Below, piece after piece: positions 12,001 through 18,000 of a stretch of 64,000 nucleotides of DNA (position 1 is its first letter; each line of letters starts with the position of its first letter). A program made the position numbers. Source of the DNA: Escherichia coli O157:H7 (GTDB lineage Bacteria; Pseudomonadota; Gammaproteobacteria; Enterobacterales; Enterobacteriaceae). The stretch lies in the NCBI RefSeq assembly GCF_013167455.1, contig NZ_CP038330.1; one strand, 5' to 3'.

Positions 12001-15000
12001 AAGACACTGAGGAAGCGCCGGAAGCTGAGGCTTCAGTGCTTTCCCTGGGGAGAGCCACGGCTCATTGCTTTAAACCCTATCCGGACACAAAAAATTTCTA
12101 TTACGAGGCCTAAGCCTCACCCAAACAGGAGGATCAACATGCGATACCAGGTATTTAAAACGAAGGAAGGGGGCCAGCCGGTGTTTACGGCACCGTGGTA
12201 CTGGTTGGCCTCTGCCATTGCTCACTGGTCATCTCTTAACTGGGATGCCTGTCGAATCGTAGACAGCAAGGTGGATGAAACAAGGCTCTGTTGGGCCAAG
12301 GCTCTACCGGCTGGGAAAAAAAAGTAATTTGGATGGAGTGATTATGAGGTTAGGTTTTGTGAAAAATACGGGGGTTTCAGCGTTCCTGGTAGCCATGCTG
12401 GTGGTGGCCCCTCAGGTATGGGCAGAAACCTTTACTGCGAAGGTTGTGGGGGTGTCTGACGGTGATACGGTCAAGGTCCTGACTGAACAAAGCTGTGACT
12501 CCGGGAAAGATTGCCGGAGCGGCAAAATCCAGTACCGGGTAAGGCTGGCGGAAATCGACACCCCAGAGAAGAAACAACCCTACGGCTCAAAGGCGAAACA
12601 GGCGTTGTCCGATCTGGTGTTTGGTCGAATGATTAAAGTCGAGCAAATCGACAAAGACCGTTATGGCCGTCTGGTCGCCAACCTTTATGTCGATGGCAAA
12701 TGGGTCAATGCCGAAATGGTCCGTTCTGGGAGTGCGTGGGTGTACCGGCAGTACGCCAAAACACCGGAGCTGTTCAAGCTGGAGGCCGAAGCCAAAGCCG
12801 ATAAGCGAGGTCTCTGGGCATTACCGGAATCGGAGAGAACTCCCCCTTGGGAGTGGCGAAGAAAGCACTAACCACACCCCAGAGTATGCAGGTGTAAACA
12901 GTAACCAAGAAAACAAACAGGAATAACGATGAACAAAAGTGAACTGATTATGAAAGTGGCCGAAGACGCTGACATTAGCAAAGCAAAGGCCGAAGCTGCG
13001 GTAAATGCGCTGATCAACTCAGTGACAGAGGAGCTTAAAGCGGGTGGGACAGTAGCGCTCACTGGGTTTGGTACTTTCCACGTTAAGGAACGCGCAGCGC
13101 GAACCGGGCGGAATCCCCAGACTGGAGAGAACATCCAGATCGCGGCGGCCAACATTCCTGGGTTCAAAGCTGGTAAGGGGTTGAAAGACTCCGTGAACTA
13201 GATCTTAATCATGTGACACATGAATAAGGTTTACATAAGGCTCCTTCGTGGGAGCCTTATTCATATCAGACATGAATAAGGGGAAGGGATGAGATTGTCG
13301 TCAACTCAAAAAGACGTTTTGTTCATTCTATACGCAATTGAGGCCGGTGGAAAAGCCGAGCCTGTACCAGGTGTAAAAATACTGGAGATGATCAATTCAG
13401 CTCGCCAGAGCGGTATTCATGGAACGAACTTCCGAACGTCATGCCACACGCTGGTGGAGAACGGCCTGTTGAACAAGTACCGGAATGCTTCTCTAAAGCT
13501 GGCCTTTAGGCTGACCGACGATGGCAGGGAACGTGCAGGAGAGATATACCGAAAACGGCTGGAAGAAGAGCAAGAGAAGTAATACGCCCCATAACGGGGC
13601 GTATCGAGTTAAACGGCAAAGCCGTAGTGGGTGCCGTCCGGAAGTTCAACATCGAGGCGTAGCTTGCCACCGGAGGCCTCAACGTACCGCTTAATGGACG
13701 ACAGCTTGAGATCTCGTCCAGGTTTTTCCATCTCGGAGACTGTCGGCTGTCTCACACCCAGAGATGCAGCAATTTCCCCCTGGGTAAGGTTCATGCGATC
13801 ACGAAGCTCTGCCAAGTGGATGTTCAGTAACATCTCAGTGGCCGCTTTCTGTGCTTTGGCAACAACCTCAGGCTTTTCTGTTGCCAGCATTTGGTCAAGA
13901 GTTCTTGCCATAACGTCACTCCTTCTTCAATTTATCCAAGTGCGCCGCAAACTCACGGTCTGCAATTGGGATCATTACTTCATAAAACCTTTTCTCGTCC
14001 CCGGTCTTGTTACCGGCGCAGAGAAGAATCCCCTTACGCTTTGGATCGAACGCAAAGAACGCTCTGATAGGATCTCCTTTGCTTTGGACCCGAAGCTCTT
14101 TCATGTTGCTGTAGGATGAACCGTTAACAGTATCCGCGTATGGCCTCGACAGCATGGGGCCTCTATCTCGCAGCACCATCATCGAAGCCAGCACGTTTGC
14201 TCTATCGGTATCATCCAGAGCATCGAACCACTCATCAAAGGTGTCGGTTGTCTCGATGACCCACATGATTTCTCCTTACTTAATATAGGTGCAATCCTAT
14301 ATAGATTCAAACCTATAATCAAGAAAAATCGGCGGCGATGGGGGCCGAAATGTCAGTAAGTAGTCATGTGACTAAAATAGGGGGTAGAATAAGCCTCGAT
14401 ATAGTCATGTGACTAAAAGGTGTCCTGAATGAACAACCTACCCCTACTGCTCGATGCAAGAGAAGCCATTGACTACTACCACCAGCATCCAGGCATGACT
14501 GATGCAGAAAAGGCCTATGTGGTCGCGTTCCTAAGCGGAGAGGGGCGTTCAAACAGTCAGATCAGAGAGGATCTGGGTATTGAGAAGGTCTATACGGTTA
14601 CACACCTGAAACGCGCCGGTACGCTATCGGAGGAAGAGCTAACACTCTGGCTCAGAAATCCACGCAAGATCACCCTGGGGCATGTGAGGGCCGTGGCTAA
14701 GTTACCTTTCAGCAAGAGAGAAAAGCTCCTGAGGGATCTCCTGCATACCAGGACACCGGTTCATAAATTTGAGGCGATAGCGAAGGGCAAAGAAGTGGAC
14801 AGGGATGCAGACATTAAGCGCCTGGAGACCCTGATGAGCGATGCTACGGGTAGGCCTATCAAAGTTCGCTATAACCCCGCGAAGCGCTCCGGGGAACTGA
14901 CGCTGGGATTCTTCACGCTCGATGACCTGGATGACGTGTGCAAGGCTTTGGGGTTTGATCCAAGCGAGCAGATGTAAACCAGAAAACTTTCACATGTGAA

Positions 15001-18000
15001 AGTCTTGCAAGGTGTCTTTTTATTGTTTACAGTATCATAAAATGAATCTGTAAAGGTGCGCGATGAATGTGCTTCCAACGAAAAGCTGGCCTTGGGCGTT
15101 ATAACTCAACCAGACCTGAGTGGCTGGCGGCGTACCGAAACGCAAGATGTATGAGAAGCTCAGGTAAAGAACCTGATGCTTCTCTTTCCGGGATAGCTTG
15201 GAAGGCGCAACTCATTGTTGCCCATGAAAGAGGCAGAATTGACAGCCTGGCTGTCCCTTTGGATGCCAGATTGATAGCAAAGAACCTCATCGACGAGATC
15301 CTTGCTGAGGAGAACTGATGGACGAAAAAATTACCTACGAAGAAATGCTTGAACAACTCGACCAGAAAGGCATCCGCGTCACCAACGGGGCGAGACGGCT
15401 TTATGTCGCGTTGAACAACGGAGTCAAAGCTGAGGTGCTGGGTAACTGCGGTCCCGCCACAATCAGCTTGGTTGACGGGATGATTGTTGTGGAAGAGCAG
15501 ACTCTCCACTAAGGGCAGCAGCATGGGCAAAAAAGTACACATCATTTGTGGAAAGTGCGGCAGTGACGAGATGAACTTTGTCATCAATGAACACTGTCCA
15601 GACGATCCCCAGAATGTTGCCAGTATGTCCTGCTCAAATTGTTGCGAACTGACAGGCATAGCCGAGTGGTCGGAATTTAATGGACGTGAGCTGAAAGGTG
15701 AAGCCGTCGCCCTATCAACACCGGCAAACGTGAATGCTCTTCTAGGATTGCTTCGCCAGGCGATGGACAGCGTTGAGTATCGCCTCTATGGCGGGGACAT
15801 GTCATTGAGCGGTAATGATGCTGCCGAACTCATAGACCTCCAGGAGCGAGCTGAGAAGGTCTTGTCTGTTCTTCGGAGTGATCAGCATGAGTGATTTATA
15901 CGAACCGCTTGAGTTTGTGTTCTGCGGCTTTAGGAAAGGGGACGCTGGGCTATTTATCTCGGTAGCCACTTTGCGCGATGGTGTTTTAGGCCGTGAGATG
16001 TATTTCTCAAAGGGAAAAAGCAAAAGGCGCTGGGTTGTCGGTGGCATTTACTCAGGGGCCTCGTTTTCGGACAACGGAGCAAAAGGTCTGGATGATGCTC
16101 ATTACGTTAAAGCATGGGAAGTGCAAGGCGACAAGATAGAGTGGCAAGCAAAAAGCGAGCAAGCCGAAGCCTTGGCGCGAAGCGAGAAACTTGAAGCCGA
16201 CGATAGGAAGCGCAATGAACTCGAAGAGCTGATGCTACCCATCAGGAAGCAATATGGGGCATTAACAAAGCGACGTGATAGGGCAGGGGCCGCAGCTCTT
16301 GAAGAAGCTGTCCTGAGAGCGCTGAGAGCGCCCATCAGGAAGGCTGAGGAGAAATAACCGTGGAGCCAGTCTTAGCTAAAGCATTCGCCGGTTTTAAAGT
16401 CGTAGCTGTAAGTGCCCATCAGATTGGCTTTTCGGCTTTTCTTGCCATTGGTGTTTGCTGGCGCTTTAGGGGTCGCAAGTACGCCATAGAACAGGATACC
16501 AACAAGTGCCGCTTGCCACGCGAAAACAGCAACCAGAATCCAAAAAGCAGCAGCCAGAACCGGCAGTTTGTGCAGAAGGTTGAGCACCGACTTGGCCCAA
16601 ATCACTGCCGGGATAGCCAGCACTGCGTAACCCCAGTTGGTGGCCTCAAGCATAGCCAGGCCAAGAATAACAACAGCCATCAGCGCGATATTCAGTACAT
16701 GTTTCATGGTCATCTCTCCTTTTCAACTTACACTTTTATCCTATCACAGCATTAAAAAATGCAACTGTGAAAGGGCATTTTTCATTCAAAAAGAGGTGAC
16801 ACTTTGAGTGCAATTATCAGCAAGTGCGGCATGTACAGATACCGTCTGGAAAGGGATGTGCAACCCGAAGGCCTTGTGTTCGGTTATTTTGGTGTAAACG
16901 GCTCTACGGCCACGGCCACCGAGGACGATCACACGGTCAGAAAGTGGATAGGGTTTACCAAGGTCAACGGAGGGAGGCGATTCATAGTCGGTAATGCTTT
17001 TGCTTTTCGGGCGACCGACGTTCGAGAGCTGGCTACGGCGGTTGATCCTGTCGGGCCTGAAAATGAAATCCACTTGGAAAGGATTATTCGGGATGCTGAT
17101 GTCTTGGTGCCCTGCTGGGGGAGCCGAACTAAGCTGCCTAAGTCTTTGCATGTTCATTTGGACAGGCTTTTAGAGCAGCTCGTTGCATCTGGGAAGCCGG
17201 TATTGGCATTTGGCGTGACTGGTTCGGGGGACCCGAAGCACCCACTAATGCTTGGATATTCGACAAAACTTGTGCCCTGGGGAGGAAAATAATTATGTCG
17301 ATGCTTGAAGCACGTTACTTCGTGGCAAAGATAAGCGATGCACAGGCCGTGCTCTGCGATGAGGAGCTGGCGACACTGGAAAGGCTGATCCGGAAGGTTG
17401 ATGATGGCCGCAGAGCAAATGGCAAGAGCTCGCTTACTTGCGTTGTTGTCGAAGAAGATTGGCCGAACTGGCAGCAAACGGTTGACTCTGTACTTTCACT
17501 TGCTGACGGGAAAGACAACGATTGGACCAATGCCACACCAGAACAAATCAAGGCCTTTTGGGTCGATGACTCAGTTTGGAAAACTCTGGATGGCCGGGAT
17601 AAATGGATTGAAGATCTCGACCTGCTGGTGGACGGTTCCCCGGTGGCTTCTGAGTGGGAACCTTTTGGCTTGGAATCAGGGCAGTCTGTCGTCATACGAG
17701 GCGGATGGATAGAAGGGAATGCCTTGAGTGATGATGGCGTACCGCTAGTGCAGGCATTCGTCGCTTGGAAACAGGGCCAAGACAACCACTAAAGGAAAAT
17801 TACTTCGGAAGGGCGGCTATGGCCGCTTTCTTTTTAATATTTACAGCATCACATAATGATACTATGATGTTGTTAATTTACTTGGGGAGGCGCTTATGCT
17901 CACTGCTAAATGTATAGGGTGCGGATGCACCGATGATCACGCTTGTGTTGAAAAGGCACTGTTGCAAAGTTAGCGATGAGGCAGCCTTTTGTCTTATTCA

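Follow-up and report, generated by a model that had tools for sequence, protein, structure and literature searches.

A short ParB-type protein of IncC plasmids: a probable accessory autorepressor with a predicted operator of its own

The window analyzed here is a 64,000-nucleotide stretch of contig NZ_CP038330.1 from Escherichia coli O157:H7. It is an IncC (A/C2) multidrug-resistance plasmid, and its positions 1-17954 are collinear with pR55 1139-19089. An intact open reading frame (ORF) at 14429-14977 on the plus strand encodes a 182-residue ParB-type protein (WP_001061574.1, R55_24), here called the short ParB, and a string of small genes comes after it. From the sequence alone this layout had been read as an orphan ParB-like regulator heading an operon of small genes, an accessory module of unknown function. 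The locus raises the question of what such a ParB controls and whether the small genes belong to it. Our analysis makes it probable that the short ParB is an accessory, ParB-derived autorepressor and that the small genes are not its operon. The Prokaryotic Genome Annotation Pipeline (PGAP) names the product only ‘transcriptional regulator’, and the identical protein is found on ~990 sequenced plasmids. The label ‘parB-like regulator’ for R55_24 in PMC10954446 is the sole published mention that we found and gives a name only; the literature searched gave no operator, regulon or phenotype for R55_24/WP_001061574.1. Hundreds of IncC plasmids match the segment 14300-17950 with 100% identity, in many cases at the same positions, and 1040 PLSDB records contain the region.

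We found that the short ParB has the C-terminal dimerization domain of ParB proteins (Pfam ParB_C, 7e-8, 32.3 bits against a cut-off of 23.8). A profile built from 39 homologues matches the C-terminal domain (CTD) of Spo0J (5NOC, 6e-5) and Helicobacter pylori ParB (4UMK, 6e-4), and also 1VZ0. The AlphaFold2 model (predicted local distance difference score 89) was compared with known structures using Foldseek, and the DNA-binding domains of Spo0J, Noc and ParB came out on top with probability 1.0 (1VZ0, 4UMK, 7NFU, 6Y93). Its template-modeling score against the Noc DNA-binding domain 6Y93 is 0.70, its best PDB matches include Thermus Spo0J, Noc, ParB-parS complexes and the KorB DNA-binding domain, and its C-terminal part matches 5NOC. 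Thus the central ParB-type helix-turn-helix (HTH) is recognized by the family profile and by the model, despite a sub-threshold Pfam match. The ParB-like HTH proposed from the sequence is borne out by these matches. In an exhaustive profile search, full-length ParBs (260-300 aa) align with the short ParB only from about their own residue 100 to the end, and 47 representative clusters at E<1e-30 are all ~180 aa long. Across this family the GHxRA motif is conserved and a putative recognition helix, VYTVTHLKRAG, is almost invariant.

Other ParB hallmarks are missing. Pfam gave no match at E<=1 to ParB_N, the ParB/Srx CTP-binding domain, and none to the KorB domain PF08535, nor did we detect homology to KorA. 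The short ParB is therefore a ParB HTH joined to a Spo0J-type C-terminal dimerization domain, without the N-terminal domain for CTP hydrolysis and ParA contact. It has neither the defining CTPase domain of ParB nor a KorB domain and should not be classed among the partition ParBs. We also considered it as a paralogue or heterodimer partner of the canonical IncC ParB; the case is weak, with BLASTP between the two at E>1.

Chromosomal ParB/Spo0J and Noc share with the short ParB the HTH fold and the type of lysine-rich C-terminal dimerization domain (5NOC). Unlike them, it lacks the ParB_N/CTPase domain and the ParA-stimulating peptide, and because these are missing, clamp loading, sliding and partition are not expected of it. 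Having lost the CTPase and ParA-interaction domain, it would form no CTP-gated sliding clamp and would act as a simple dimeric, site-specific DNA binder.

Such a binder needs a site, and the best candidate lies at the gene's own promoter. The 17-mer TAGTCATGTGACTAAAA, here M3, has two exact copies at 14361 and 14402, against 0.05 expected. A consensus scan finds a promoter-like TAGTCA-18-TAGAAT at 14361-14390. The first putative operator, M3a (TAGTCATGTGACTAAAA, 14361-14377, plus strand), begins with the TAGTCA hexamer that doubles as the -35-like element; the predicted -10-like TAGAAT (14385-14390, plus strand) falls between the two boxes; and the second putative operator, M3b (14402-14418, plus strand), sits just past it and 10 nt ahead of the start codon. 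On the whole of pR55 the only exact M3 sites are these two.

We then surveyed nine independent genomic contexts that carry homologues 43-69% identical to the short ParB (124.7 kb in total), using the pattern TAGTC-N3-TGACTA with one mismatch allowed. This gave 22 sites, of which 20 lie within 300 bp upstream of the orthologue and the other two in the gap upstream of an AcaB gene. M3 is present upstream of the orthologue in all nine contexts, in one to five copies spaced 40-53 bp apart, apart from one pair in L005 that is separated by 224 bp; L003 has up to five copies at 41-52-bp spacing. When the orthologue upstream regions are aligned, the two M3 boxes are the only invariant blocks. In L004, L011, L003 and L008 a -10-like hexamer (TATAAT, TATATT or TATGGT) is found at the corresponding place between the boxes.

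The consensus is a 16-bp near-palindrome, TTAGTCA-YR-TGACTAA. In L025 (3635-3741, 5975) and L026 (5881-5987) the box becomes the perfect palindrome TTAGTCACGTGACTAA with the centre TCACGTGA, which is also the centre of chromosomal parS. Chromosomal parS and the predicted M3 are thus both 16-bp palindromes centred on TCAC(G/A)TGA, and this centre fits the Spo0J-like HTH predicted for the short ParB. Unlike the sites of ParB/Spo0J, those predicted for the short ParB are on its own promoter and do not form a centromere.

This suggests that M3, a previously undescribed motif, is the likely operator of the short ParB. As a phylogenetic footprint for autoregulation the M3 array is strong, and it is the element that matters most for the short ParB; the pair had gone unnoticed in the sequence-only reading. 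A dimer would bind the TTAGTCA-YR-TGACTAA boxes, M3a over the -35 element and M3b just past the -10, and occupancy would repress the protein's own sigma-70-like promoter. Since the boxes bracket that promoter, such occupancy would be autorepressive.

Two intragenic look-alikes on pR55 with two mismatches (99688 and 109774) were set aside as chance, as their equivalents persist in the IncA plasmid CP119511.1, which has no short ParB. The second of them lies in a gene for a toprim-domain protein and reads CAGTCATGTGACTG on pR55 (109774, L015:9774) and TAGTCGTGTGACTG on IncA (102895); the likeness to M3 is probably coincidental.

The surroundings of the gene in the relatives place it in a wider family. 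In eight of the nine contexts it has parA-parB beside it, and in eight it is a lone gene; the IncC string of small genes follows it in none. In the usual layout it is divergent from an operon of the order X-DUF2857-AcaB-type IV secretion system and convergent with parB-parA. L004 differs in having it directly upstream of parA-parB-rep, and L025 is the sole context in which it is co-directional within a string of integrative and conjugative element (ICE) genes.

The short ParB is an orphan only locally. No parA lies within a few kilobases, as had been noted, but the window holds a canonical partition pair further on (43521-41545): parA at 42730-43521 and a KorB-type parB at 41545-42726, both on the minus strand, the latter matching ParB_N (1.2e-13) and the KorB domain PF08535 (1.7e-38). 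In pR55 this pair, parAB053, is downstream of the segment and in the same orientation. In the window an IS26 copy with the inverted repeat GGCACTGTTGCAAA begins at 17955, and two inverted IS26 copies (17955-20018) come after the segment. Positions 20019-45163 then correspond to pR55 63937-38332 in inverted order, a ~25-kb block with parAB053, the mobH relaxase gene and traD, and pR55 19090-30509, the 11.5-kb backbone string that follows the segment, is missing. The parA-parB genes have thus been displaced from the short ParB gene by an IS26 inversion.

Across the relatives M3 is constant, and the inverted repeats downstream of the short ParB gene vary with the type of the neighbouring ParB. 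The parS of IncC type is found among them only in L007, which has a KorB-type neighbour, in the same position past the stop codon as in IncC. Other relatives have inverted repeats of the form TTCCCG-N4-CGGGAA there; in L003, L008, L011, L024 and L026 these are paired and lie between the short ParB gene and the convergent parB (for example L008:9690-9740). These repeats probably serve as centromere sites for the ParB that each of those plasmids encodes, in the place where IncC has parS. The IncC gene is a self-contained accessory cassette of the IncC lineage and derives from a family whose members in related MOBH plasmids are sited between parA-parB and the DUF2857 (BisC-like)-AcaB activator operon. 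In these relatives the M3 boxes take up the promoter region that the divergent genes share, or stand ahead of acaB. In L025 two M3 boxes lie directly upstream of the AcaB-family gene, which suggests control of the transfer activator.

The same observations can be turned into a structural explanation, in which the short ParB and the M3 array form a DNA-protein complex that serves as an auxiliary centromere or as a roadblock or insulator that keeps KorB-type ParB clamps, loaded at the adjacent parS, from sliding into promoters nearby. The promoters shielded would be that of higBA here and that of the BisC/AcaB-like activator operon in the relatives. In the window the divergent neighbour of the short ParB gene is a HigB/RelE-like toxin gene (13916-14266, minus strand), which with its Xre antitoxin gene (13609-13911, minus strand) forms the vcrx027/028 pair (13609-14266; PMC4207636). 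The order M3 boxes, short ParB gene, centromere-like inverted repeat, parB, parA is constant, the L003 array is long and regularly spaced, the TCACGTGA centre resembles chromosomal parS, and autoregulation alone gives the short ParB no output, all of which would suit such a complex. IncC has two boxes only, however, both on the core promoter, which is the classic layout of an autorepressor, and the short ParB lacks the N-terminal region that contacts ParA in ParBs. We consider the structural explanation unlikely.

A bolder extension, to which we give only a small chance, is that short ParBs without the N domain make up a gatekeeper class of their own on MOBH plasmids and ICEs, where they would repress the BisC/AcaB-type transfer-activator operon from parS-like TTAGTCA-YR-TGACTAA boxes sited between it and the partition locus. 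They might also serve as a roadblock and insulate that operon from CTP-loaded ParB or KorB clamps that slide in from the nearby centromere, which would tie the choice to transfer to segregation. The IncC copy would in that case be a remnant moved in from elsewhere, or one repurposed to guard higBA.

Autorepression by the short ParB, the reading that we prefer, has partial precedents; in its working the short ParB would come closest to a classical dimeric HTH autorepressor, assembled from ParB modules. In BisD of ICEclc and VirB of Shigella, too, a DNA-binding module of the ParB family serves to control transcription on mobile elements, and relatives of the short ParB adjoin a DUF2857 (BisC-like)-AcaB operon. 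The 360-429-aa proteins in the BisD position of the relatives gave no Pfam match, so that homology to BisD is unproven. BisD and VirB, which keep the N-terminal domain of ParB, work by activation or anti-silencing, whereas the short ParB has no such domain and, from where its boxes lie, is predicted to repress. The IncP plasmid RK2 offers another comparison. Its KorB is a partition protein that doubles as a global repressor, and KorA is a small co-repressor; the short ParB would resemble them as a plasmid HTH repressor tied to parA-parB, and could be seen as a small companion regulator. The canonical IncC ParB is itself of KorB type and has scattered sites (~14). Unlike KorB, the short ParB has exact sites on pR55 only at its own promoter, and for this reason it is not a global regulator. 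KorB, VirB and BisD are its nearest functional analogues, and all of them retain the N domain.

Two further repeats lie between the short ParB gene and the small genes, and had been proposed as sites of the regulator. Both occur well above chance, but neither is likely to be bound by the short ParB. The first is the 16-mer CTTTCACATGTGAAAG (M1), with eight copies in the window against 0.35 expected, one of them 9 nt past the short ParB stop codon. This copy, AAAC-TTTCACATGTGAAA-GTCT at 14984-15005, fits the published description of IncC parS, the site of the canonical KorB-type ParB: a 14-bp core TTTCACATGTGAAA with the flanks AAAC and GTTT, present in ~14 copies on R55, one of which is listed ‘near R55_24/parB-like regulator’ (PMC10954446). 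In that work, electrophoretic mobility shift assays (EMSA) with the canonical ParB used three representative parS sites, and the copy at 14984-15005 was not among them. Our own count of the core on pR55 is 14 exact sites plus a further site that has one mismatch; the IncA plasmid has 14.

The second repeat, ATCATWWWATGAT (M2), has six copies in the window (3751, 15034, 17848, 39993, 40200 and 43589) against 0.09 expected. Its context is palindromic over ~30 bp, TTTACAG(Y)ATCATAAAATGAT(R)CTGTAAA, and reads as a sigma-70-like TTTACA-17-TATGAT/TATAAA/TACAAT with the palindrome ATCAT-N3-ATGAT in the spacer. The element past parS, TTTACAG-TATCATAAAATGA-ATCTGTAAA (15024-15056, plus strand, core 15034-15046), is the probable promoter of the unit of the 64-, 123- and 156-aa genes. 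Another, TTTACA-17-TATGAT at 17838-17870 on the plus strand, heads the next backbone operon, which is cut by IS26 at 17955. The other elements in the window are at 3741-3773, 39983-40015, 40190-40222 and 43579-43611, and those on pR55 (L013-L016) at 19326, 20422, 26788, 82769, 166201 and 166753.

A position weight matrix (PWM) built from seven pR55 sites also finds members outside its training set, namely a degenerate element in the window at 16741-16773 (score 25.2), in the divergent gap between the membrane-protein gene and the DUF1643 gene, and pR55 26788 and 166753, the last ~100 bp before acr1. Shuffled windows gave 0-1 matches at a score of at least 14. M2 sites precede operons of the backbone part from repA to parAB053, and one is in the spacer of PparA; none was found in the nine contexts with short ParB orthologues. 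M2 is thus a plasmid-wide promoter/operator class that is not particular to this segment.

The pR55 element at 26788 precedes a third ParB-type HTH protein of the IncC/IncA backbone, which lies outside the window (L013:26847-27785, 312 aa, HTH_ParB 2.7e-8) and is named ‘hypothetical’ in pR55 and ‘ParB’ in IncA. The window also encodes a 97-aa product (13289-13582) annotated ‘chromosome segregation protein ParM’, which has no Pfam match, matches only small phage families and shows weak matches to ‘transcriptional regulator’ families. The ParM label looks like a misannotation. Being kept in IncA and IncC and lying inside an M2-headed operon, this winged-helix-like product is one candidate for the protein that binds M2; 053, Acr1 and Acr2, likewise common to IncA and IncC, are others.

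The PparA site bears on another role for the short ParB. PparA, upstream of parA, has parS at 43564-43579 and the core of M2 at 43589-43601. For full repression of the 173-bp PparA fragment parAB053 is not enough, and the backbone must supply a further factor from elsewhere (PMC10954446). The short ParB could be this extra IncC factor, the proposed target of Sci from SGI1, acting through the M2 in the PparA spacer or by contact with ParB. That such a factor exists, that the authors of PMC10954446 call R55_24 a ‘parB-like regulator’, that the gene nearly always adjoins parAB in the relatives and that parS abuts its 3' end would favour this role. However, the 173-bp fragment holds no M3-like site even with three mismatches, IncA retains the PparA architecture of M2 and parS without a short ParB, and the IncC plasmid pVCR94deltaX is stable without one. 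In addition, the short ParB is unlike the KorB-type ParB in sequence and its CTD is of Spo0J type, which makes heterodimerization unlikely. We regard this role as improbable. M2 is the obvious unexplained element of the PparA fragment and may be the operator of the co-repressor described in PMC10954446, a link that we infer from its position.

The IncA plasmid CP119511.1 bears on both repeats. We found no homologue of the short ParB anywhere on it (tblastn E>1) and no M3 pair, and it lacks the short ParB gene together with the higBA-like toxin-antitoxin pair. Yet IncA keeps its 14 parS sites and its M2 promoters, including those at PparA and at the equivalent of 15024, and for this reason the short ParB is unlikely to bind M1 or M2. 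Homology between IncA and IncC resumes at 14976, within the short ParB stop codon; from there IncA has parS and M2, and then the gene for the 64-aa protein. IncA has a deletion at 15613-16287, and most of the 123- and 156-aa genes, the DUF1643 gene and the 165-aa gene are missing from it.

The segment is also absent from pVCR94deltaX, the standard IncC laboratory prototype, in which the HigB-like toxin gene leads directly to sul2 and parAB053. This plasmid is reportedly stable and transfers at wild-type frequency (PMC3915882). Since it lacks the segment, the pVCR94 transcriptome and chromatin immunoprecipitation data are uninformative here. This part of the backbone varies between plasmids, and the description of the segment as an accessory module agrees with its absence from both.

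We next turn to the small genes themselves. Of the seven counted from the sequence, an ORF for 83 aa (15067-15318, plus strand) is doubtful; it is unannotated by PGAP, it is not conserved in IncA because of a 142-nt indel and a change of frame, and it is more likely a leader. The indel is an IncC-specific insertion (15084-15225) in the leader that separates the 64-aa gene from the M2 promoter. Inside it is a terminator-like hairpin with a 12-bp stem (15153-15184; fold z-score of the leader -2.8), which may act in attenuation or mark the 3' end of a small RNA of ~130 nt. Rfam gave no RNA family in 13000-18500 at E<=1.

Three tightly packed genes on the plus strand follow. The 64-aa protein (15318-15512) has no family match and is conserved in IncA. 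The 123-aa protein (15523-15894), mostly deleted in IncA, had been taken for a zinc ribbon; its cysteine pairs are present (CxxC...CxxCC; C9xxC12, C37xxC40C41), but its only family match, to NCBIfam ECs_2282_CxxC (E 9e-4), is sub-threshold at 19.1 bits against a cut-off of 37, so that we call it a possible zinc ribbon. The 156-aa protein (15887-16357), whose gene overlaps the previous one by 8 nt, has no family or PDB match. The next gene, PGAP-annotated and for a small membrane protein of 111 aa (16372-16707), is on the minus strand and intact in IncA. Of the 34 substitutions between IncA and IncC within it, 22 fall at the third codon position of the minus-strand frame, a pattern that marks it as a real gene under purifying selection.

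Behind the degenerate M2 comes a coupled pair on the plus strand. The DUF1643-like protein suspected from the sequence is confirmed (162 aa, 16804-17292; Pfam PF07799, 2e-26, 93.1 bits against 22.5, profile positions 1-134 of 134). Its family is very large and highly conserved, with 2924 matches at E<1e-5, many of them 65-75% identical, and its genes occur alone on chromosomes and among the small genes of mobile elements. The second protein of the pair (165 aa, 17295-17792) has in its N-terminal ~70 aa a domain common to uncharacterized phage proteins (phrog_7810, 6e-15; phrog_7432, 2e-12) and gave no Pfam or PDB match. A hairpin with a T run, like an intrinsic terminator (17810-17829, plus strand), ends this unit and is conserved in IncA, as expected from the clear terminator already seen at the end of the string. 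The profile searches that had been proposed for each product were informative for the short ParB (ParB_C) and for DUF1643, and gave no informative match for the 64-, 123- and 156-aa products. PDB sequence searches with the 123-, 156-, 162- and 165-aa proteins found nothing meaningful, and PADLOC found no defence-system match among nine products.

A single operon would be co-directional, free of internal promoters and conserved in its linkage, and the small genes show none of the three. Because parS and an M2 promoter intervene, a minus-strand gene interrupts the string and the linkage is lost in IncA and in the relatives, where the gene usually stands alone, the short ParB is not an operon head as first thought. 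The small genes are separate M2-driven units, with boundaries that we infer from the sequence; they would be driven by their own copies of M2 and separated from the short ParB gene by a parS for the KorB-type ParB. The original proposal, an accessory operon of about seven genes that the short ParB regulates through M1 and M2, has in its favour that the genes lie near one another and, with one exception, on the same strand, that no clear terminator follows the short ParB stop codon and that M1 and M2 lie exactly between regulator and small genes, but it is very improbable given that M1 is the parS of the canonical ParB (EMSA on representative sites, PMC10954446), that M2 and the 64-aa gene persist in IncA without any short ParB homologue, that orthologue loci have M3, never M2, and M1 only beside a KorB-type ParB, that one gene of the string is real and on the opposite strand, and that the string does not follow the orthologue in the relatives.

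Several points weigh against our own explanation. The Pfam match of the short ParB to HTH_ParB is sub-threshold (0.026). The case for M3 as the operator consists entirely of co-occurrence and position. No terminator is evident between the short ParB stop codon and 15024, and read-through from the short ParB promoter into the small genes is therefore possible. Dispensability holds for E. coli under laboratory conditions, and the deletion in pVCR94deltaX took out much else. Finally, it is hard to see what a regulator would achieve by binding nowhere but at its own promoter; some function must therefore still be missing, and it could lie in a protein partner, in a role as a roadblock or in the control of higBA.

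IncC plasmids are among the principal vehicles of multidrug resistance, and the circuitry that maintains them has been mapped only in part. Our analysis tells three cis-elements apart at this locus: the known parS, the plasmid-wide M2 class and a previously undescribed, predicted operator of the short ParB. What is new is this predicted operator and the synteny of the family with partition and transfer-activator loci. The short ParB, dispensable and specific to the IncC lineage, now has a concrete predicted binding site, and the practical importance of its gene is modest. For the PparA co-repressor thought to be targeted by SGI1 Sci, it is the M2 in the PparA spacer, rather than the short ParB, that is the probable handle.

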